64,000 nt of DNA, from positions 27,672 through 91,671 of the forward strand of contig QHXX01000038.1 in NCBI GenBank assembly GCA_003223135.1, in the 5' to 3' direction. Position 1 is the stretch's first letter. Each line of letters begins with the position of its first letter. Source of the stretch: Acidobacteriota bacterium (GTDB lineage: Bacteria; Acidobacteriota; Polarisedimenticolia; Gp22-AA2). Below, one piece after another: positions 9,761 to 42,965 of this stretch. Below the pieces are notes generated by a model that saw nothing but the letters and a program-made list of their open reading frames with translations, was not told the origin of the DNA and ran no database searches. The translations under genes and the position numbers were made by a program.

Positions 9761-10477
9761 TCAATATAAGGTGGGCCGCGTCCCGAGGCCATCGGCCCGC
9801 GCCCGGCGGCGCCGCAGCGCGGCGTACCGGCAGCCCGCTCGGAGCGGGCATTGTGGGCAGGCGGGGGCGCGCGCCCGGCAGACCCTGCGCCCCAGCGTGA
9901 TCAAGTTGACATGGGCCGTCAAGTAGCGCGTCTTTGGGATCAGGTCCGCCAGAACCGCGTGTGTCTTCGCGGGTGTCGCATCGGCGGAGACCCACCCCAG
10001 GCGGCGGGCCACTCTGTGAATGTGCGTGTCGACGGGAAACGCGGGCTGGCCGCAGGCGAACAGCAGGACGCAGCAGGCCGTCTTCTCTCCCACTCCCTTC
10101 AGTCCGCGCAGGTAGGCTTTCGCCTCTCCGACGGGCAGGCTCTTCAGGGAAGCGAGATCCAGGCGCCCATGGTCGCGGAGGATCCTTCGCAGGACCGCCT
10201 GGATGACTCCGCTCTTGGTCCGTGCCAGTCCGCCGACGCGGATCGATTCCTCGACGTCCGAGGGAGATGCCCGCAACGCCTCCTCCCACCGCGGAAAAGC
10301 GCGGCGCAGCGAGGCATAGGCCCTGTCACGGTTCACGTCGCTCGTGTGTTGCGACAGGATCGTCAGGATGAGCTCGTCGAGGGGCGAAAAGCGCCGGCCG
10401 AGGCGCGGGCGCCCGAAGACCGTCTCGAGCCGTTCAAGCTCGCGCTTCACCCTCCTGCGCAAAGCACCTTCCTGCAT
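9761..10477 (-). CDS. nth: endonuclease III (DNA glycosylase/AP lyase)
   Basis: HhH-GPD motif LKGVGEKTA, 4Fe-4S cluster ligands C-x6-C-x2-C-x5-C (CRARAPACPQCPLRAGC); internal ATG of ORF 9761..11563, whose N-terminal 360 aa is a GC-frame artefact. Confidence 0.9.
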   Translation of the reverse strand: MQEGALRRRVKRELERLETVFGRPRLGRRFSPLDELILTILSQHTSDVNRDRAYASLRRAFPRWEEALRASPSDVEESIRVGGLARTKSGVIQAVLRRILRDHGRLDLASLKSLPVGEAKAYLRGLKGVGEKTACCVLLFACGQPAFPVDTHIHRVARRLGWVSADATPAKTHAVLADLIPKTRYLTAHVNLITLGRRVCRARAPACPQCPLRAGCRYAALRRRRARADGLGTRPTLY

Positions 10478-10533
10478 CACCGATCCGCTCCCGGTGGCCC
10501 GCCCAGGGGCCCGTCCCCTACTCGGACCGGCCC

Positions 10534-33221: not shown

Positions 33222-33342
33222 GATGACGGTCTCCTCGCGTCCCCTCCCCGCCGCGTGGCCGCGGCTTCGGGCCCGGTGGGAAACGGCACGGACGCTCTGA
33301 ATGCGGAATGGGCGGTGAATCTAGCACAGCGCCGGGTCAGGT

Positions 33343-34152
33343 TCAATACTGGACCAGCGACCCTTCCTGCCGCGCCTTGCGCACCGCGAAGCGGAAGGCC
33401 AGGATGCCGATTGGCAGGAGGACGGCGACGAACAGCACCAGGACCTCGATGTCGGGCAGCAGCTCGGAGAAACGGCTGCCGCGCAGGAGGGCGCGGCGGA
33501 GGGCGCGCAGCGCGTAGGTGATCGGCAGGAGATGCGACCAGCCGCCGAGCCACCTCGGCATGTCCTCCGGCGGGTAGAACACCCCGCCCACCAGGGCCGA
33601 GCCGCTCGCCACCAGATAGGTGATCGGGTCGCCGCGCTTGAGATAGAGCACGAAGGCGGCCGACAGGATGCCGATACCGGAGAAGGCCAGGACCGTCAGC
33701 GCGATGATCAAGAGCGCGGGAAGCAGGCTGTCGAGGTGTATCACGACGCCGAAGAACAGCCGCCCGACCACGAGGTATGCGATCACCTTGATCGAGGTGA
33801 GCAGAAACTCCCACAGCGACGACCCCAGAACGATCGTCCCGATGGGTGTCGGCGTCAGCAGCATCGCTTCGAGCGTTCCCGTCATCTGCTCGCCGCGCAC
33901 CTTGCCACCGAACGACATGAGGGCCGAGGACAGGTAGTGCAGGAGCGCCAGCCCCAGGAGTACGTACGCGAAGTAGTCGACCCCTTCCAGGCCGGGTGTC
34001 GTCGGCGGCGCGTTCACCACGCGCGACACGAAGTACCAGATCAGGACCGAGAAGACGATCCCGAAGGCCTGCAGCAGGAACGAGGTCCGGTACGAGACCT
34101 CGATGAGGAAGTCGCGCTTGATGAAGGCGACGAGCGTCCGCAGGGTCTTCAT
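33343..34152 (-). CDS. ABC-2 type transporter permease
   Basis: 269 aa, 6 TM helices, ABC-2 family pattern; 4-nt overlap with upstream ATPase gene; internal ATG (MKTLRTLVAF) of ORF 33343..34224. Confidence 0.75.
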   Translation of the reverse strand: MKTLRTLVAFIKRDFLIEVSYRTSFLLQAFGIVFSVLIWYFVSRVVNAPPTTPGLEGVDYFAYVLLGLALLHYLSSALMSFGGKVRGEQMTGTLEAMLLTPTPIGTIVLGSSLWEFLLTSIKVIAYLVVGRLFFGVVIHLDSLLPALLIIALTVLAFSGIGILSAAFVLYLKRGDPITYLVASGSALVGGVFYPPEDMPRWLGGWSHLLPITYALRALRRALLRGSRFSELLPDIEVLVLFVAVLLPIGILAFRFAVRKARQEGSLVQY

Positions 34153-35150
34153 CCGATCCGTCCTCCCGGATCCGGCTCCATCAGGTCGAACACTTCCTGG
34201 AGACTGGGTTCGCGCCGCGCGCACGACACAATCGTTCCGCGCGAATCGAGGATCGCCCGGAGGAGATCGGAGAAGGCGCGCCCGTCCCGTTCCACTTCGG
34301 CGGCCAGGCGCGCGATGCCGTCGTCCTGCCGTTCCACCTCGAGGCGCCAGCGCGGGTCGGACGGCGGGGCCTCCAGGCCCCTCACCGACAGGACGTAGTG
34401 ATCCCTGCCCGGCAGGCCGGCGGTGATCGCCGCCACGCTCCCCTGTCGCACGATACGACCGCGATCAAGCACGACGAGGCGACTGCACATCTCCTCCGCC
34501 TCCGGAAGATTGTGCGTCGCCAGGAGCACCGTCTTGCCGCGCTGCCGGTTGAGGCGATCCACGACGAACCGCCGCAAGTGCTTGGCCGCGATCGGATCGA
34601 GGCTGCGCGTCGGCTCGTCCAGGCACAGGACCGGCGGGTCGTGAAGCAGGGCTCGTGCGATCGCCAGGCGCTGCTTCATGCCGGTCGAATAGCTCATGAA
34701 CGACCGGTCCGCGACCGACTCCATATCCATCTCCCGCAGGAGGTCGGCCGACACCCGGCGGGCAGAGGCAGCGTCGAGGCCGTAGAGGCGGGCGAAGAAA
34801 TCGAGGTTTTCGCGGCCCGAGAGCCGCCAATAGAACGATCGCTCGTCGGAGGTCACGAAGCCGATCGAGCGCTTGACGGCGCGGTCGTCCTGCGCCACGT
34901 CGACGCCGATCACGAGCGCCCGTCCAGACGTCGGAAGAACGAGCCCGGTGAGGATCTTGAGGAACGTCGTCTTCCCGGCCCCGTTGGGACCCAGGAGGCC
35001 GAAGATCTCTCCGGTGCGTGTCTCCAGGCTCAAGCCGGAAAGCGCCGTGACCGGCTCCGCCCGCCGGAAGGGGCGGAGCGCGACCTCCCGCAGCGATCGC
35101 CGCTTCACATACACCTTGGTGAGGTTCTCGGCCAGGATCGCCACGGACAT
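34149..35150 (-). CDS. ABC transporter ATP-binding protein with C-terminal DUF4162-like extension
   Basis: Walker A GPNGAGKTT, signature YSTGMKQRL, Walker B VLCLDEPT, H-loop LLATHN; GGAGGAGGGGG RBS; internal ATG of ORF 34149..36734. Confidence 0.9.
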   Translation of the reverse strand: MSVAILAENLTKVYVKRRSLREVALRPFRRAEPVTALSGLSLETRTGEIFGLLGPNGAGKTTFLKILTGLVLPTSGRALVIGVDVAQDDRAVKRSIGFVTSDERSFYWRLSGRENLDFFARLYGLDAASARRVSADLLREMDMESVADRSFMSYSTGMKQRLAIARALLHDPPVLCLDEPTRSLDPIAAKHLRRFVVDRLNRQRGKTVLLATHNLPEAEEMCSRLVVLDRGRIVRQGSVAAITAGLPGRDHYVLSVRGLEAPPSDPRWRLEVERQDDGIARLAAEVERDGRAFSDLLRAILDSRGTIVSCARREPSLQEVFDLMEPDPGGRIG

Positions 35151-35182
35151 TGCCGCCCCCTCCTCCGGCGCCGGCGACCGGG

Positions 35183-38100
35183 TCAGCGCCCTTCGAGTCG
35201 CCGGGTGTTCCAGGTCTTGCGGTACTCCCGGTGCTCGGTGTCGTCCGGGTACGCCTCGCCGTCCGGGTACGGGTAGGCCGACATGCCATGGAACGGCAGC
35301 GGCTCGACGGTCTCCGGGTAGGCGGTGTGCGGATCCATGTCCTTGCAGTAGCCGTTGGCGTACAGAAGGAAACTGCGCGTCCACCCTTTCGGCAACTTCG
35401 GCAATCCCTGCGCGGGGAACTCCAGGGTGACCTCCTCCCCCTTGCCGAAGATCACGAAGCGATCGTCGGTGCGGGTGAGCAGGTCGGTGACCCGACCGAA
35501 GCGCGTGTAGTCGCCTGTCGTGACCTTGAACGGCTGCGTGTTGTCCAGGATCCCGTAGTCGTAGATCTTCGGTTCGCGACCGTCCGGGCTGTGCTCCCTC
35601 GGGAAGCCTCTGCGGTGCAGGTGCGCGCCGTTCGCCTTGATTTCGCTCACCTTCACCGACTCCGCCATCGGCGCCTCTGCGAGCGGCTCCGCGATGAAGA
35701 TCTGATCCCAGAAGAGGCGCATGTTGGTGCGCAGACGGAGGCGGCGGGAGGAAAGCGGCGCCAGGCCGGAGAGATCGACGCTGATCATGCGCGGCAGCCC
35801 CGGCGGGAAGCCCATCGGGTCGAGGACCGGTCGGAAGACACGCTCGTCCGTGTCCTCCATCTCCAGGACGGGCGCCGTCAGCCGGACGCCGGCCTGGTAG
35901 GCGGCGTAGTTCGAGGACGAGTATTCGAAGTCGACCCAGCCGTAGAGGAAGAGGACCGGGCGCCGCAACCGCGTGACGGCGTCGGGGAACTCGAGCGTCA
36001 GGTGGTGCATCTCGGCGAATCCCGCCCGGCGATCCAGACGAAAATCGTCCGGATACGTCCGATCGATCGTGAGGATCCTGTCGGTCACCTCGCGGTTGTG
36101 GTGGTCGGTGGCGCGGGACGGGAAGAGGCGAGCCCCTTTCTCGACCGCCAGGACGCGGTACGGCTGGCGCTCCTTGCCGCCGAACGCCCCGAGAGGATAG
36201 ACATCGATGTCCTTCGGGTGATCGAGGGCGAGGAGCTTCGTCTCGTCCAGGTAGGTCACCTCCTCCAGGTTCTCCAGCACCTGGATCACATAGGCGCCGT
36301 CGCGCGGCGCGAGCTGAGACGGCTCGACCTTCACGTACTCCTCGGGTTGAGGCGTGCCGTACACGCCCGGCGCCGTCCACAGACCGAGCCCGCCGACGCC
36401 CAGGAAGTCGGTCACGAAGCCGTACTTGTTTCCGTTCCAGGCAAACAGGAGCGGACACGACGACCCCTTGCGATCGAGCTCCGTTTCGTCCACCCTCTGC
36501 CCCGCCGGCACGTCCATCTCGGCCTGCAGGACGCCCCCGGGCCACAGCAGGCGCACGACGTCGGCCAGCGACCGCCCGCCCAGGCCGAAGTGCGCCGTGG
36601 GCGGGGATTGCGACAGGTAGCCGGCGCCCGCCTGCACCTCGCGCCGCTGCCAGGTCGGGCCGGCAAGCGCTTCGATTTTGGTTCCGATGCCATCCTTGTT
36701 GCTGTTCAAGCCGTGCGGGGCGACCTCCAACCATCGGTTCCGATTGCCGCCCTCGTTACGCAGCAGGATCGGCGGGCCACCATTCTCCGTCACGATCAGG
36801 TCGAGATCGCCGTCGCCGTCCAGGTCGGCGGCCGCCGCCCCGCGGCCGTCCTTCACCGGAATCTGCCGCAGGCCGGCCTCGTCCGAGGCGTCCTTGAACC
36901 GGCCTTCGCCATCGTTCAGGTAGAGCAGAAGCTCCGACCCCGCGACGAACAGGTCCAGATCCCCGTCGTTGTCCGCATCGAACAGGACCGCGCCGAACAA
37001 CGACGCCCCCTTCGGCTTCGGGATCTCCTGCGACGTGAACGTCAGGTGCCCGCCGTTCAGGTAGAGACGCAGCGGAGCGTCGGCCCCCGCGGCGAACACG
37101 AGATCGGCCAGGCCGTCGCCGTCGACGTCGCCCGCCGCCACGCCGCGCCCGGCGCCGCGTGACGCGAGTCCCACCCCCCGTCCGCGCGCGGCCAACCCTT
37201 CTTCCCGGCGGTTCTCGAGCAGCGTGTCCTGTCCGCCGGCGGAGGAGACCACGGCATCGAGATCGCGGTCGGCGTCGAAGTCGGCGAACACCGACCCCAC
37301 GGTGCCGCCGGGCGGTCCGGAGAACTTCATCTCCGCCGCGGCCGGTTTGAATGCGCCGTCGCCCCCATTCAGGAGGAGGGTCGAAGAGACCGGGGTCTGC
37401 GAGCCGGGCGGTGGCAGCCGACTGACGAAGAGATCGAGGTCGCCGTCGTGATCGACATCGGCCCAGGAGGCCCCGAGGGCGAACCCCTTGATCGAGGCGC
37501 CGGCCTTCCGCGTGATGTCAGCGAAGTGTCCCTTCCCGTCATTCTCGAACAAGGCCCCGCCGCCCTGCCGGGTCAGGTACAGGTCCGCGTCCCCGTCATT
37601 GTCGAAGTCTCCCAGGACCGCCGCCATTCCCAGGCCTTCGAAGACGACACCCGAGGCCTGCGTCACGTCCTCGAACGTGAGGTCGCCCTTGTTGCGATAG
37701 AGGGCGGGTCGCGCCCTTCCGTCGGCCGAGGCGTTGGCGAACACCAGGTCGGGCTTCCCGTCCCCGTCGAAATCTCCGACCGAGAGGCCTGAACCGTAGC
37801 GCGCCGCCCGCGCCCCGGGGCCTCCGTCGCCGGAGGCGGGGGGACGCCCAGGCTCACCTCCCGGGCCTCCGTGCCGGAACGTGACGCCGGAGGCCCGCGT
37901 GGCGTCGCTGAAGCGGATGACAATCGGCCGGGCCTCGGCCTTCGGGCCGCCCAGCGCCGCGTAGTCGGTGATGACGAGCGCATAGCGACCCGCCTCGCCA
38001 TACTGGTTGCCGGTCGGGACCGCGAATTTCGGATTGGCCGACAGCTTCTGGTAGACGGCCATTTCCCTGTCGCCCTCGGTGCGTTTCCCGGACTGCAGGA

Positions 38101-38650
38101 GCGCACGCGCGAGCTGGTAACGGATGGACATGCTGTTTGGGTCGAGCTGGCGGGCGCGCTTCAGGGACGAGATCGCCGGGTCGAACTCCCGCTGGCGGGC
38201 GTGCAGGAGCCCCAGGTTGTACAGGATGTCCGCGTCTTCGGGGTCGAGGGCCCGGGCCTTCTCGAGGGCGACGATCGCCTCGGCCGTCTTTCCCTCGTTC
38301 TTGAGGACGAGACCCAGCCCGTAATGCCCCTGCGGCAGCTTCGGGTCCAGACGGATCGCCTCGAGAAACGCCTCCTTCGCCGCCGCCGTCTCGCGGGAAT
38401 AGAGGGCGGCCAGGCCCAAATTGACGAAGCCGGGCGCCCAGCCGGGAGCGCCCTCCGTCACCTTCCTGAATTCCTCCATTGCCTGCGCGTGCTTGTACTG
38501 CTCCATCTGGGCGGCGCCGCGGTTGTTGGCATGAATCACGTCGTCCAGGCTCGCGACTTTCGCCAGCGGCGGCTCGACCCCGGCACCCATGAAGAGGAGA
38601 AGACAGGCCGCCACGCCCGACCCCAGGCCTGCCGCCACGAGGCTTTTCAT
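35183..38650 (-). CDS. CRTAC1-family lipoprotein: N-terminal TPR repeats, FG-GAP/VCBS beta-propeller repeats, ASPIC/UnbV domain and about 500-aa C-terminal extension
   Basis: Lipobox-like MKSLVAAGLGSGVAAC; TPR repeats (aa about 40-230); repeated DxDxDGDxDL Ca-binding FG-GAP blades; ASPIC/UnbV signature (NKDGIGTKIE...GYLSQS...HFGLG); start ATG overlaps upstream stop (ATGA). Confidence 0.75.
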   Translation of the reverse strand: MKSLVAAGLGSGVAACLLLFMGAGVEPPLAKVASLDDVIHANNRGAAQMEQYKHAQAMEEFRKVTEGAPGWAPGFVNLGLAALYSRETAAAKEAFLEAIRLDPKLPQGHYGLGLVLKNEGKTAEAIVALEKARALDPEDADILYNLGLLHARQREFDPAISSLKRARQLDPNSMSIRYQLARALLQSGKRTEGDREMAVYQKLSANPKFAVPTGNQYGEAGRYALVITDYAALGGPKAEARPIVIRFSDATRASGVTFRHGGPGGEPGRPPASGDGGPGARAARYGSGLSVGDFDGDGKPDLVFANASADGRARPALYRNKGDLTFEDVTQASGVVFEGLGMAAVLGDFDNDGDADLYLTRQGGGALFENDGKGHFADITRKAGASIKGFALGASWADVDHDGDLDLFVSRLPPPGSQTPVSSTLLLNGGDGAFKPAAAEMKFSGPPGGTVGSVFADFDADRDLDAVVSSAGGQDTLLENRREEGLAARGRGVGLASRGAGRGVAAGDVDGDGLADLVFAAGADAPLRLYLNGGHLTFTSQEIPKPKGASLFGAVLFDADNDGDLDLFVAGSELLLYLNDGEGRFKDASDEAGLRQIPVKDGRGAAAADLDGDGDLDLIVTENGGPPILLRNEGGNRNRWLEVAPHGLNSNKDGIGTKIEALAGPTWQRREVQAGAGYLSQSPPTAHFGLGGRSLADVVRLLWPGGVLQAEMDVPAGQRVDETELDRKGSSCPLLFAWNGNKYGFVTDFLGVGGLGLWTAPGVYGTPQPEEYVKVEPSQLAPRDGAYVIQVLENLEEVTYLDETKLLALDHPKDIDVYPLGAFGGKERQPYRVLAVEKGARLFPSRATDHHNREVTDRILTIDRTYPDDFRLDRRAGFAEMHHLTLEFPDAVTRLRRPVLFLYGWVDFEYSSSNYAAYQAGVRLTAPVLEMEDTDERVFRPVLDPMGFPPGLPRMISVDLSGLAPLSSRRLRLRTNMRLFWDQIFIAEPLAEAPMAESVKVSEIKANGAHLHRRGFPREHSPDGREPKIYDYGILDNTQPFKVTTGDYTRFGRVTDLLTRTDDRFVIFGKGEEVTLEFPAQGLPKLPKGWTRSFLLYANGYCKDMDPHTAYPETVEPLPFHGMSAYPYPDGEAYPDDTEHREYRKTWNTRRLEGR

Positions 38651-40296
38651 GCTCCCATTCTGAGGACGCGCCCGGCCGCCTGCGGACGGAACTCCCTGCC
38701 GGCCACCACGCGCCGGCCGTTGACCAGGACCTCGTCGATCCCTGCCGCGAAGCGCCGAGGCTCCGTGAACGTCGATTGATCGGCGACGGTGAGCGGATCG
38801 AAGAGCACCAGGTCGGCCTTGCACCCCGCCATCACACGCCCCCGGTCGCGCAGTCCGAGCCTGTCCGCGGGCAGCGATGTCATCTTGCGCACCGCCTCCT
38901 CGAGACCGAGGAGCTTCCGCTCGCGGACGTAGTGCCCCAGGACGCGCGGAAAGGCGCCATACGCCCCGGGATGCGGGAACCCCTTGCCGATCTCCCAGGC
39001 GTCGGAGACGACAGCGAGCCTCGGGCTCCGGAGCAGTGGCAGCAACGGATCGTCGCTCGTCTCGTCGCCGGAGACTCCGAAGATGAGCTGCGTGGCGACA
39101 CCAGACTCTTCCAGGAGAACGTCCGACAGCGCGTCGAACGGATCCTGGCCGCGGCGCCGGCCGATCGCGGCAATCGTCAGGTGCTCGTACCCCTTGTTGC
39201 CCGACCCATCGACATGCGCCAGTCGGATATGGTCCCAGCCGCACTCGCGGGCGATGTTCATGGTGAAGCGACCCTCCCCCGCCCACGGCGGCCACACGGG
39301 CGAGGTCTCCGCGACCTCCCGCTTCATCCGGGCACGCAGGACCGGGTCGCGCAGCCGCTCCAGGAAGGCCGCGACACCGCCGTCGAGCGACCAGGGGGGA
39401 TAGAGCGCCAGCATCGTGGTGCAGACCGCCGTGTAGGGGATGACGTCCGCCGTCATCTCGATCCCGTCGCGCACCGCCCGCTCTTCGGCCGCGAGGATGT
39501 CGGGTGTTCCGGACCAGGCCCGGCTGCCGACCGTCTCGACGTGGGAGTGATGCACGGCCGCCCGCGCGCGCCGTCCCACCTCGATCAGCTCGTCGACGGC
39601 GTGCGCCAGCGTGTCGCGGCTGCTTCCGCGCTGGTGGAAGGCCGCGAAGCCGGACGCCGCGGCCGCCGCCCGCGTCACCGACACCAGCTCGTCGGTGTCG
39701 GCGAACTGCCCGGGCGGATAGATCAGGCCGAAGGAAACGCCATACGCCCCCTCTTCCATCGCCTGGCTCACCAGCCGATCGAGCGCGCGCTGCTCGTCCG
39801 TGTCCGGCCGCCCGGAGCGCGCACCCATGGCCATCAAGCGCAGCGGACCGTGCGCCACGAGCGACGCCACGTTGACGAGCACACCCTGGGTTTCCAGATG
39901 TCCGAGGTACGAGGCGAACGTTTGCCAGCTCCAGGAGACCTCTTCAGGGGTGATGAAACCGCACACCCGCTCGACGTCCGACTTCGTCGTCGCCGAAAGC
40001 GGAACGCATCCGATGCCGCAGTTGCCGAGGAGCTCCGTGGTGATCCCCTGTCGCACGCGCCCCTCGAGGAGGCGCGCCTGATCGTGAAGCGGCAGGGTGA
40101 AGCACAGATCCGAATGGGAGTGCAGGTCGATGAAGCCGGGGGCCACGACGCGACCGCCTGCGTCGATACGGGGTGCTTCGACCTCGAGCCGCGACTCGAC
40201 GGCGGCGATCCGGTCACCCAGGATGCCGACGTCGGCCCTGAAGGCGGGGCGCCCGGTGCCGTCGATGACCTGTCCGTTGGCGAGGATCAGATCCAG
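38647..40296 (-). CDS. D-aminoacylase-family amidohydrolase (N-acyl-D-amino-acid deacylase-like) with non-canonical start
   Basis: APGFIDLHSHSD metal-binding motif, TIM-barrel amidohydrolase core, C-terminal beta domain; N-terminal beta-sandwich (PTLDLILANGQVIDGTGRPAFRADVGI) is in frame upstream of the ORF-track GTG (40146), but the frame has no ATG/GTG/TTG back to a TAA stop; CTG at 40296 preceded by GGAG is the best candidate start. Confidence 0.7.
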   Translation of the reverse strand: MDLILANGQVIDGTGRPAFRADVGILGDRIAAVESRLEVEAPRIDAGGRVVAPGFIDLHSHSDLCFTLPLHDQARLLEGRVRQGITTELLGNCGIGCVPLSATTKSDVERVCGFITPEEVSWSWQTFASYLGHLETQGVLVNVASLVAHGPLRLMAMGARSGRPDTDEQRALDRLVSQAMEEGAYGVSFGLIYPPGQFADTDELVSVTRAAAAASGFAAFHQRGSSRDTLAHAVDELIEVGRRARAAVHHSHVETVGSRAWSGTPDILAAEERAVRDGIEMTADVIPYTAVCTTMLALYPPWSLDGGVAAFLERLRDPVLRARMKREVAETSPVWPPWAGEGRFTMNIARECGWDHIRLAHVDGSGNKGYEHLTIAAIGRRRGQDPFDALSDVLLEESGVATQLIFGVSGDETSDDPLLPLLRSPRLAVVSDAWEIGKGFPHPGAYGAFPRVLGHYVRERKLLGLEEAVRKMTSLPADRLGLRDRGRVMAGCKADLVLFDPLTVADQSTFTEPRRFAAGIDEVLVNGRRVVAGREFRPQAAGRVLRMGA

Positions 40297-40309
40297 AGTG
40301 GGCTCCGCG

Positions 40310-40609
40310 TCAGCGGCCGAAGCGAGGTCGTTCGCCCAGGTGCCCGATCGAATGGAAACGATCCTTGTTGACCTTTAGGTTATTGGCTCCCTGGCTGCAG
40401 CCGGTGCACCCGGAGTAGGTCTCGTTGAAGTGACGGTAACAGCAGTCCATGAGGTTGTACCAGACGCCGTATTTCCAGCAGAAGAAGTTGGCGTCCCGGG
40501 GACGGAAGTTGCACTTGAGGACATGGCGTCGCAGGCCCCGGCCGGTCTCGTCGGTCCCCTCGGGCTCTACCGGATCGATGGTACGCAACTGCCCCCTCGC
40601 TGAGCTCAT
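40310..40609 (-). CDS. small Cys/aromatic-rich hypothetical protein (99 aa, C-x10-C-x11-CC-x10-C-x2-C)
   Basis: MSSARGQLRTIDPVEPEGTDETGRGLRRHVLKCNFRPRDANFFCWKYGVWYNLMDCCYRHFNETYSGCTGCSQGANNLKVNKDRFHSIGHLGERPRFGR; composition (N, F, Y, W, K, C) is unlike GC-frame artefact ORFs; TGA stop lies 11 nt upstream of the amidohydrolase candidate start. Confidence 0.5.
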   Translation of the reverse strand: MSSARGQLRTIDPVEPEGTDETGRGLRRHVLKCNFRPRDANFFCWKYGVWYNLMDCCYRHFNETYSGCTGCSQGANNLKVNKDRFHSIGHLGERPRFGR

Positions 40610-40721
40610 GCGGGCATTCTAATGCATTCCCGGCGCGCGAGCACCCCCACCGCGCCCGTTCCGGGGCTACGGGGCCTGCGGCCCGGGGGCGCTGAACCTC
40701 CCCGAAGAAGAGAGTGTCGAA

Positions 40722-41732
40722 ATGCCGCGCCAGGGGACAGTCGTCGTGTACGTGGAGGCGCCCCGGCGCATCGCCGGCCCGGTTCTCAAGACCTTCGAGG
40801 AGCAGACCGGCATCGAGGTCAGCGCGACGTACCGGGAAAACCTCGGGGACCAGTTTCTGTCGACGCTGAAGTCGCAGGCGGAGCGGGGGGCGGTCGACGT
40901 TTTCTGGGGCGAGACTCCGCTCTCGGCGTACGACATTGTGGACGCCGGCCTGGCGGCGCCGTTCCGGCCGGCGGGGGCGCGCCCTGTGCCGGGACAATAC
41001 CGCGACCGGGAGTTCCGCTGGATCGGCTTCGCCGTCAACCCCCGGGTCATCGTCTACAACACCAACCGCATGAAGCGCGAGGAGGCGCCGACAGAGACCA
41101 CCGACCTCACGAGGGCTCCCTGGGCCGGCAGAGGGGCGATGCCTCGCATCGCCACAGGCCCCCCGGCCTTTCACGCCGCGGCCCTGTTCACGCTCTGGGG
41201 CCCGGAGAAGGGCCGGGCGTTCTTCGAAGCGCTGCGCGCGGACGGCGGTACGCGCATCGTGGAGGACGACCGCGAAGTGCGCCGTCTGGTGTCCGAGGGA
41301 GGGGCGGCCTGGGGGCTGATCGGACTCGATCAGGCGATCTGTGCCAAGCGCGAGGCCGAGCCGGTCAACGTCCTGTTCCCCGATCGACTCGGTTCGGGAG
41401 CGATCGTGCCGCCGCACGTGGCGATCCTTCTTCGAGGCGCTCCCCACGCCGCCCAGGCCAAGGGACTGTTCAGCTACCTGTTCAGGACCGAGTCAGCCTG
41501 GGTTCTGGGACAGAACGACTGCGCGCTCGTCACGCTGCTTCCCAACGTTCCCCGACCTGACTGGGTCCCTGCGCTCGGCGGGCTCAATGTCGCCCAGGTC
41601 GACCCCGAGGCAGCCTGGAAGGTCTATCGAGCCAACGCCCCTTATTTTTCCTCCTGGGGGGCGGAGCAGGGGCCGACGGCGGCACCCCCGATCCGGCCGC
41701 GGGCGGCGCTCGACCCTGCGCCACGGCCTTGA
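40722..41732 (+). CDS. ABC-type periplasmic-binding-protein fold (Fe3+/thiamine/polyamine SBP family) protein lacking a signal peptide
   Basis: TVVVYVEAPRRIAGPVLKTFEEQTGIEVS ... FWGETPLSAYD pattern of FbpA/ThiB-type SBPs; in-frame upstream is closed by TAA with no alternative start, so no signal peptide; GAAGAAGAGAG RBS. Confidence 0.65.
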   Translation: MPRQGTVVVYVEAPRRIAGPVLKTFEEQTGIEVSATYRENLGDQFLSTLKSQAERGAVDVFWGETPLSAYDIVDAGLAAPFRPAGARPVPGQYRDREFRWIGFAVNPRVIVYNTNRMKREEAPTETTDLTRAPWAGRGAMPRIATGPPAFHAAALFTLWGPEKGRAFFEALRADGGTRIVEDDREVRRLVSEGGAAWGLIGLDQAICAKREAEPVNVLFPDRLGSGAIVPPHVAILLRGAPHAAQAKGLFSYLFRTESAWVLGQNDCALVTLLPNVPRPDWVPALGGLNVAQVDPEAAWKVYRANAPYFSSWGAEQGPTAAPPIRPRAALDPAPRP

Positions 41733-41879
41733 CGGTCTGACGATCGCCTGACGGGCGTATCGCCGCAAACCCGCGTCAAATAGGGTTTTTTCACGTTGCC
41801 GCCCGATTTTTTGGGTGGTATAGAATACGCGCAGCCGATTCGGGAAAGGAGCGACCTCCGGGCCCGCCGGGGGTTTTTC

Positions 41880-42965
41880 ATGCAGGGAGAGGTCCAGCCG
41901 AAACCGCCGCGATCGCCCGCGGTGGCTACGCGGAAGTTTCGCATCTTGATCGTCGACGACGACCGGGACAGCGTCGATCTGCTCGCCGAGTGGCTCACCA
42001 TGGGCGGCTACGAGGTCACGCACGCCCGGGACGGCCAGGAGGCGCTGCGCCGGATCCAGACCGATCGCCCCGACCTCGTCCTTCTCGACCTGTTGATCCC
42101 GCCCCCGGACGGGATGCAGGTGATGCGTACCATCAAGCGCGACCGCCTGCTCTCCACCATCCCGGTCGTCGTGATGACCGTCAAGCGGGACGTCAAGAGC
42201 AAGGTCGAGTGCCTCAAGAGCGGCGCCGACGATTTCATCGTCAAGCCGTTCCACTTCGACGAGCTGGATGCCGTCCTGCGCTCGTCACTCAAGAAGCGCT
42301 ACCTCTACACCTCTTTGGAGCGGGCCAACCAGCAGTTGCGCGACGCCAACGAGCGGCTCCTGAAGCTGACGGTCACCGACGAACGCACCAACCTCCTGAA
42401 CGATCGCTACCTGAGGCGCCGGCTGTCCGAGGAGTTCAAGCGGGCGCAGCGCTACGGCACGCCGCTGTCCGTGGCCATGCTCGACCTCGACCACTTCAAG
42501 CAGGTGAACGACAAGTACGGGCACGACTGCGGCGATCAGGTGCTGCGCGAATTCGCAAAGCTCCTGACTGAGAACGCGCGCACCACCGACATCGTGGGGA
42601 GGTATGGCGGCGAGGAGTTCCTCATCGTCCTGCCCAACACCGACGGCATCCGCGCCGCCATCGTCGCCGAGCGCATCCGCAAGGCGGCCGACGAGCACAT
42701 CTACAAGTACAAGGAGTTCCTGGTGCGGCTCACCGTGAGCGCCGGTGTCGCCTCCTCCCCCGCCAACACTCAGGTTCGGGACGAGAACGATCTCCTGAAG
42801 GCCGCCGACCAGGCGCTCTATCGCGCCAAACAGGTGTCGCGCAACCGGGTGATCGTGGACCGGGCCTCGATGCCGCCGGACGTCCTCGAGGGGGACCTGT
42901 CGTCGATCTTCAAGGCCTCATACGAGGACAACCTGGGTCGCGATCGCGATCGGGACGAGAGCTAG
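41880..42965 (+). CDS. response regulator receiver-GGDEF diguanylate cyclase (PleD-like)
   Basis: REC domain (ILIVDDD...DLVLLDLLIPPPDG...KSGADDFIVKP), GGDEF domain with intact GGEEF (RYGGEEFLIV) and RxxD I-site region. Confidence 0.9.
   Translation: MQGEVQPKPPRSPAVATRKFRILIVDDDRDSVDLLAEWLTMGGYEVTHARDGQEALRRIQTDRPDLVLLDLLIPPPDGMQVMRTIKRDRLLSTIPVVVMTVKRDVKSKVECLKSGADDFIVKPFHFDELDAVLRSSLKKRYLYTSLERANQQLRDANERLLKLTVTDERTNLLNDRYLRRRLSEEFKRAQRYGTPLSVAMLDLDHFKQVNDKYGHDCGDQVLREFAKLLTENARTTDIVGRYGGEEFLIVLPNTDGIRAAIVAERIRKAADEHIYKYKEFLVRLTVSAGVASSPANTQVRDENDLLKAADQALYRAKQVSRNRVIVDRASMPPDVLEGDLSSIFKASYEDNLGRDRDRDES

Follow-up and report, generated by a model that had tools for sequence, protein, structure and literature searches.

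A conserved five-gene block of Acidobacteriota: a four-cysteine small-protein gene ahead of an amidohydrolase, an exported propeller protein and an ABC-2 transporter

Why would the gene for a small, cysteine-rich protein stand at the head of a run of genes for an amidohydrolase, a large exported propeller protein and an ATP-binding cassette (ABC) transporter? The question is raised by five genes on the minus strand (33343-40609) of a 64,000-nucleotide stretch of an Acidobacteriota genome (contig QHXX01000038.1, positions 27,672 to 91,671), which we call the window. Acidobacteriota are a poorly studied phylum that is abundant in soil and sediment. An initial annotation of the window described these genes as a cassette and offered two models for it, one patterned on the Nos maturation proteins and the other on modified-peptide systems. 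Its observation is partly confirmed and its interpretation partly supported by the analysis given here. The reading that we favor, with a probability of about one half, is a one-plus-four arrangement, in which a leaderless gene for a four-cysteine (Cys4) small protein is followed by an operon for a hydrolase, an exported propeller and an ABC exporter, the whole being specific to a lineage of the Polarisedimenticolia, subdivision 22 type. The locus brings three novelties: a family of Cys4 small proteins that had not been described, CTG as a conserved start codon, and domains like carbohydrate-binding modules (CBMs) in a bacterial CRTAC1-type protein. No description of the locus was found in the literature on Polarisedimenticolia, on bacterial CRTAC1/ASPIC proteins or on leaderless Cys-rich small proteins.

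Gene content and conservation of the block

Translation and profile searches support five open reading frames (ORFs), given here from the 5' end of the minus strand, with product lengths in amino acids (aa):

40310-40609, minus strand: small gene, 99 aa, no match in Pfam, NCBIfam or the PDB
38647-40296, minus strand: Amidohydro_3 enzyme, 549 aa (PF07969, PDB 1m7j)
35183-38650, minus strand: exported propeller protein, 1155 aa, with TPR, FG-GAP and UnbV_ASPIC domains
34149-35150, minus strand: ABC transporter ATPase, 333 aa (PF00005)
33343-34152, minus strand: ABC-2 permease, 269 aa (PF01061)

The window has a G+C content of about 68%, and spurious ORFs are numerous in it. Four of the five genes were confirmed by searches of Pfam, NCBIfam and the PDB, the small gene being the exception, and the picture of five co-oriented, tightly packed genes drawn by the initial annotation is borne out. 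Three of the junctions that it described are exact: an ATGA overlap (38647-38650) joins the end of the amidohydrolase gene to the start of the propeller gene; a gap of 32 nucleotides (nt), containing the ribosome-binding site GGAGGAGGGGG, precedes the ATPase ATG at 35150; and the ATPase stop and permease start overlap by 4 nt (34149-34152). The fourth has to be revised. An 11-nt gap had been placed between the small gene and an amidohydrolase start near 40298, where there is no canonical start codon; the most likely start is a CTG at 40296, 13 nt after the TGA of the small ORF. A consensus scan, which is weak evidence, detected no terminator-like or sigma-70-like sites inside the block, and an Rfam scan of the whole window returned zero matches.

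How far does this arrangement extend beyond the window? The order small gene, amidohydrolase, propeller protein, ATPase, permease recurs in about 25 loci (L001-L024 and L114, the last followed only as far as its contig reaches), the lowest identities being 43-47% for the small protein, 59% for the amidohydrolase and 47% for the propeller protein. All of these loci come from Acidobacteriota metagenome-assembled genomes (MAGs), many of them labelled Polarisedimenticolia or 'gp22'. The conservation of the neighborhood that the initial annotation had proposed to look for in Acidobacteriota and Planctomycetota is thus found in some 25 acidobacterial loci, but in one lineage only, and no Planctomycetota locus carrying the block was found. 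Three of the MAGs (L011, L021 and L022) bear the labels Binatia, Verrucomicrobiia and Cryosericum and show the same eight-gene synteny at 64-78% protein identity; their bin labels are probably wrong.

The spacing within the block is conserved as well as the order. Across the loci, the junction of the amidohydrolase and propeller genes is mostly an overlap of 4 nt, as is that of the ATPase and permease genes in every locus having both, while the propeller and ATPase genes lie at most 43 nt apart, with a 4-nt overlap in one locus and a 1-nt overlap in another. The small gene and the amidohydrolase are separated by anything from 2 to 114 nt; in 20 of 25 loci the spacer measures 2-24 nt and includes a Shine-Dalgarno sequence. 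Moreover, the block is kept where its surroundings change. The upstream flank differs in L005, where an extra gene also precedes icd, and the downstream flanks differ in L001 and L014. L114 likewise has a different upstream flank, and there a second CRTAC1-type gene lies between the small gene and the amidohydrolase. That the block outlives the turnover of its flanks argues for selection on it, though not for an indivisible unit.

The four-cysteine protein and the start of the amidohydrolase

Judged by its sequence, the small protein is a member of a family that has not been described before and is so far represented only by sequences labelled Acidobacteriota. The initial annotation called the ORF uncharacterized, and that description fits: it is a real, conserved gene, for which hidden Markov model searches of Pfam and NCBIfam gave no family. 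Neither the single sequence, nor 34 family members, nor a profile matched any entry in Pfam, NCBIfam or the PDB sequences, and the predicted fold had no match in the PDB. The family comprises 72 close homologs and 65 representative clusters, the latter drawn from a library of 1.84 billion proteins. Its members are free-standing proteins of 65-160 aa with one exception, a 296-aa representative (P0117), of which only the first 45 residues match the small protein. Within the window the motif occurs once, at 40486, and no second copy was found.

The core of the family, C44-x11-C56-x11-C68-x2-C71, is invariant, together with F42, R59 and Q73, and W50, Y51, D55, T64, G74 and N77 are nearly so. C33 and C57 are specific to the clade of the window. 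The protein was described as Cys-rich, which holds for this clade, with its six cysteines, but not for the family as a whole, in which only four are invariant. The central 45 or so residues are fixed and both ends are variable, and 14 of the 39 core codons show synonymous variation only among 14 orthologs, a pattern indicative of purifying selection on the protein. AlphaFold2 models the core (residues 33-90) as a beta-hairpin and three helices at a predicted local distance difference test score (pLDDT) above 90, with basic, disordered tails at both termini. The N-terminus is hydrophilic, and signal peptide and lipobox are absent. The most likely role of the four invariant cysteines is to coordinate a Zn or Fe-S center that is structural or serves in sensing.

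How are the small gene and the enzyme behind it started? Two short elements flank the small ORF:

40616-40621, minus strand: TAGAAT, a -10-like hexamer, 6 nt before the small-gene ATG
40303-40306, minus strand: GGAG, a Shine-Dalgarno sequence, between the small-ORF TGA (40312-40310) and the amidohydrolase CTG

Both the window and 16 of 18 orthologous loci have a TAGAAT-like hexamer ending 6-9 nt before the small-gene ATG; it reads TAGAAT in most of them, TACAAT in L014 and CTAACAT in L018. The box is visible only through alignment of the orthologous upstream regions, not through a consensus scan. Given its closeness to the ATG and the absence of a Shine-Dalgarno sequence ahead of the gene, the mRNA is probably leaderless, starting at or beside the ATG. 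The small genes of a distant clade (clade G, described below) differ: they do have a Shine-Dalgarno sequence, and the box ahead of them, TATACT, lies some 30-45 nt away.

The reading frame of the amidohydrolase is open from about 40380, and its first ATG, GTG or TTG is a GTG at 40146, which sits 50 codons inside the conserved N-terminus (LDLILANGQVIDGTG...PGFIDLHSH). This N-terminus starts at CTG 40296-40294. In 20 of the 25 orthologous loci the conserved N-terminus opens with a CTG codon, and GGAG or GGAGG stands 5-8 nt before the aligned codon in nearly all. No canonical in-frame start lies upstream of the CTG in the window or in L001-L004, L009, L012, L017, L018, L019, L022 and L024; L017 even has an in-frame TAA two codons ahead of the aligned start. 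Among the other loci, L014 has GTG at the aligned codon itself, L005, L015, L020, L021 and L023 have a TTG 1-3 codons ahead of it, and L114 has an ATG one codon ahead. The lack of a canonical start, combined with a conserved CTG behind GGAG(G), points to initiation at CTG, and the amidohydrolase of the window most likely starts at CTG 40296. Public gene calls shorten the enzyme, for example to 514 aa in L001, and with a conserved CTG start automatic annotation truncates it in most of these genomes. Because a weak CTG start lies so close behind the small-ORF stop, translation of the amidohydrolase is probably coupled to that of the small gene in the window. A fusion of the two ORFs by frameshifting was also considered and was rejected, since every locus keeps the small-ORF stop, the distance between the ORFs varies between 2 and 114 nt, and some orthologs have a GTG, TTG or ATG of their own at that position.

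The hydrolase, the exported propeller and the transporter

What do the four downstream genes encode? The description of the first product as D-aminoacylase-like is upheld: it matches PF07969 (Amidohydro_3) at 3e-33 and the D-aminoacylase of PDB entry 1m7j at an E-value of 1.6e-70, and it also aligns with N-acyl-D-glutamate deacylase and with the carbohydrate de-N-acetylase OngB (9kb1), which the D-aminoacylase family takes in (PMC12017989, PMC9537276). The metal ligands of 1m7j, comprising HxH, the Cys of GNCG and two His, are kept, the paired segments of the window enzyme and 1m7j being HSHSD/HTHDD, GNCGI/GNCGI, FHQR/THMR and HHSH/ISHH. There is no signal peptide, and the protein is a putative zinc hydrolase of the D-aminoacylase family, predicted to be cytoplasmic. 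With the D-aminoacylase/OngB family (1m7j, 3gip, 9kb1; PMC12017989) it shares the Amidohydro_3 fold, the metal ligands and the cytoplasmic location. It differs in an internal insertion of about 65 aa relative to 1m7j (550 versus 484 aa), in a score of 193 bits against NCBIfam PRK09061, whose cut-off is 340, and in the CTG start of most orthologs.

The propeller protein consists of a signal peptide with a lipobox (VAAC), a TPR region (about residues 43-228), an FG-GAP propeller (about 286-650) and an UnbV_ASPIC domain (654-720). FG-GAP_3 matches in 6 stretches (1.7e-47) and UnbV_ASPIC at 3.4e-15; the propeller has seven FG-GAP repeats of the Ca type, with seven Dx[DN]xD[GR] motifs. PDB entry 9etn aligns at 3.6e-20 and represents the CRTAC1/ASPIC-UnbV plan, in which an UnbV_ASPIC domain comes after an FG-GAP Ca-binding propeller. 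The protein of the window departs from that plan in its N-terminal TPR fusion and in the company, in a putative operon, of a hydrolase and an ABC-2 pump. The earlier label of lipoprotein agrees with the lipobox Cys that the proteins of the window, L005 and L114 possess, but not with the Cys-less signal peptides of L001 and L004. We know of no function for bacterial CRTAC1/ASPIC propeller proteins.

The C-terminal 435 aa of this protein (residues 721-1155; window 35186-36490, minus strand) match no Pfam family and are confidently predicted, and in the model they resemble CBM32/discoidin-like beta-sandwiches. The same C-terminus occurs at 43-49% identity in CRTAC1-family proteins from MAGs whose labels include Planctomycetota, Pyrinomonadaceae, Verrucomicrobiae and Poribacteria. 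Two of four distant propeller homologs adjoin a gene of the CN_hydrolase type (nitrilase/amidase superfamily; L106 9353-10366 and L108 4083-5087), which may be another association with an amide hydrolase.

The last two genes place an ABC_tran ATPase next to an ABC2_membrane permease, the former matching PF00005 at 4e-30 and the latter PF01061 at 3e-17 and also PF12698. The closest NCBIfam models for the pair are drrA/drrB and nodI/nodJ, with every subfamily score below its cut-off: 231.6 bits against 312.45 for drrA (TIGR01188), 54.5 against 223 for drrB, 165 against 521 for NodI and 110.9 against 131.6 for ccmA, the nodJ score of the permease also falling short. There were no NosY or NosF models among the listed matches of the pair. 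Like DrrAB, NodIJ and Wzm-Wzt, the transporter is a two-gene ATPase-permease pair with overlapping stop and start codons; unlike them, it has no cognate polyketide, Nod factor or O-antigen biosynthetic genes nearby.

Competing readings of the block

What might such a block do? In the one-plus-four arrangement, the small protein would be a folded, cytoplasmic regulatory or accessory factor of about 100 aa, not a substrate peptide. The hydrolase would de-acylate a cytoplasmic compound of the amino-acid or amino-sugar type, or a glycoconjugate, the ABC-2 pump would export something related to that compound, and the exported propeller/CBM-like protein would bind or handle an envelope glycan. An envelope- or matrix-glycan role seems to us the most coherent guess, in view of the CBM-like modules, the kinship of the enzyme with sugar de-N-acetylases and the gene for a response-regulator diguanylate cyclase (RR-GGDEF) that recurs beside the block. 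If this is true, an unnamed, strongly conserved Cys4 family gains a genomic handle, and a CRTAC1/ASPIC propeller whose gene shares an operon with those of a de-acylase and an ABC-2 exporter provides a testable link to envelope glycans. Should common descent alone explain the synteny, the new small-protein family would be all that sets the locus apart from the ordinary.

A number of observations weigh against the one-plus-four arrangement. Within the lineage, the flanks are co-conserved in most loci, with divergent genes for a binding protein of the SBP_bac_6 type (SBP) and for the RR-GGDEF ahead of the block and icd behind it, and for the most part the conservation of the block is indistinguishable from synteny by descent. 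The amidohydrolase gene is absent from L013, where the small gene leads to the propeller gene across a 236-nt spacer (10001-10515). L017, L018 and L024 have TGTATAAT or TATAAT in the spacer, about 50 nt before the amidohydrolase start; these boxes suggest separate transcription there, probably from a promoter dedicated to the last four genes. Neither a glycosyltransferase gene nor any other biosynthetic gene is part of the cassette. Farther afield, the long contigs that carry four distant propeller homologs show none of the ABC-2, Amidohydro_3 and small-protein genes beside them. A metagenome scan with distant small-protein clades yielded 80 loci (L026-L105, clade G), and in these there is no amidohydrolase, propeller, RR-GGDEF, SBP or ABC ATPase gene near the small gene. 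The small gene instead keeps unlike company in other clades, such as HAD, PALP, DUF4301 and OMP-like genes.

Taken clade by clade, the surroundings of the small gene are as follows. In clade G, a HAD-type phosphatase gene follows it in 43 loci at a median distance of 32 nt, and inspection of the sequences showed dapB-, dapA- and dapD-like genes upstream and an RNase D-like gene downstream. Clade C (L112) has AhpC and PALP and then the small gene, clade D (L113) the small gene with an OMP-like 173-aa gene, and clade F (L115) the small gene, DUF4301, A_deaminase and a heavy-metal P-type ATPase. Clade B (L025, L110 and L111), a sister clade to that of the window, has the order Hpt, RR-GGDEF, Rdx-like ORF, small gene, A_deaminase and a 284-aa exported protein, followed by a Gld-type ABC-2 transporter and auxiliary genes, and so repeats the theme of hydrolase, exported protein and ABC-2 transporter with non-orthologous parts. 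A relationship of the 284-aa protein to the propeller C-terminus was tried and rejected (hhalign probability 0.3%). RR-GGDEF also adjoins the small gene in clades B and E, and a gene of the amidohydrolase superfamily lies 0-2 genes downstream of it in four of the seven sampled clades. The parallel in clade B and the recurrence in four of seven clades are suggestive of an association, in samples that are few and partly related. Directly upstream of the clade-B small gene, L110 (7760-7984) and also L111 have a 74-codon ORF with an in-frame TGA ('YCGV*NYE'), which looks like an Rdx/SelW-type selenoprotein.

Could the small gene simply have nothing to do with the four genes behind it? This is the main rival to the one-plus-four arrangement: the small gene would be a functionally independent regulator or housekeeping gene, its position kept by regional synteny alone. 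The co-conserved RR-GGDEF, SBP and icd flanks speak for it, as do the quite different neighbors in clades C, D, F and G, the possible internal promoters of L017, L018 and L024, the loss of the amidohydrolase in L013 and the gene inserted behind the small gene in L114. Against such independence, the small gene still heads the block where the upstream flank has been replaced (L005, L114), the tight spacing with a Shine-Dalgarno sequence is seen in four fifths of the loci (20/25), the weak CTG start would gain from coupling, and an amidohydrolase-superfamily gene recurs close downstream in most of the sampled clades (4/7). On balance, we consider independence possible but rather doubtful. An improbable proposal of greater reach is that the small protein represents a new, Acidobacteriota-specific Cys4 metal-binding fold that partners amidohydrolase-fold zinc enzymes in metal delivery or in metal/redox sensing; leaderless translation would then gate the CTG-started enzyme, and expression of the exporter operon would be tied to the metal/redox state, possibly under cyclic di-GMP control.

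The models that treat the small ORF as a metallochaperone, a leader or a precursor fare worse. The initial annotation compared the locus to NosD-F-Y-L, in which case the ABC-2 pair and the small Cys protein would supply metal or a cofactor to the propeller as NosFY and NosL do for NosD and NosZ. The layout is indeed similar, in that an ABC-2 ATPase and permease are encoded beside a large repeat protein that is exported and a small one that is rich in Cys, and clade F holds a heavy-metal P-type ATPase gene two genes further downstream. The parts do not correspond, however, and we judge the model very improbable: NosD (PF05048) and NosL (PF05573) domains are absent, and the exported protein is built of TPR, FG-GAP, ASPIC and CBM-like domains rather than the NosD beta-helix. 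The small protein, unrelated to NosL and predicted to be cytoplasmic, with a probably leaderless message and no signal peptide, would have no periplasmic NosL role. The permease is of the PF01061/DrrB type, resembling DrrB and NodJ, and not of the NosY type; no nosZ is adjacent to the block, whose identified neighbors are icd, SBP and RR-GGDEF; and propeller homologs elsewhere lack an ABC partner. In addition, the evident metal sites of the propeller are Ca-type Dx[DN]xDG loops (PMC3123361), which need no chaperone. A cis-acting role is yet harder to uphold. Here the small ORF would act mainly as a leaderless, Cys-rich upstream ORF (uORF) that attenuates downstream expression according to cysteine supply, as do the polycysteine leaderless uORFs of mycobacteria (bioRxiv 10.1101/834739), which likewise come first and directly before operon genes. 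The seemingly leaderless start, the tandem Cys codons C56 and C57 and the CTG-initiated gene close behind would suit such a role. It is nevertheless highly unlikely, given 99 codons rather than a handful, a conserved and confidently predicted fold found in many gene contexts, a CC doublet confined to one clade, and the conservation of F42, W50, Y51, R59, Q73 and others, like that of the cysteines, across clades with unrelated downstream genes. As for the modified-peptide model of the initial annotation, the amidohydrolase would process a ribosomally synthesized and post-translationally modified peptide, for which the ABC-2 pump would serve as exporter. A small Cys-rich ORF next to a hydrolase and an exporter invites this idea, yet the fixed center and variable ends of the family are the reverse of a leader/core precursor, and structure prediction gives a folded domain for the product. 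Pfam searches of the five genes and both flanking genes found no radical-SAM, YcaO, LanB/C/M, cyclase or C39-peptidase, and the same protein occurs with neither hydrolase nor exporter in clades C, D and G, which leaves the model with hardly any credibility.

The divergent neighbors of the block in the window are two:

40722-41732, plus strand: SBP_bac_6-type binding protein
41796-42965, plus strand: RR-GGDEF

The SBP of the window lacks a signal peptide, and no in-frame start lies further upstream, whereas its orthologs in L001 and L004 bear lipoprotein signal peptides. On the other side, 121 nt (33222-33342, minus strand) separate the permease stop from icd, and this spacer holds a TAGATT -10-like box, and GGAG precedes the TTG start of icd, which is probably a transcription unit of its own.

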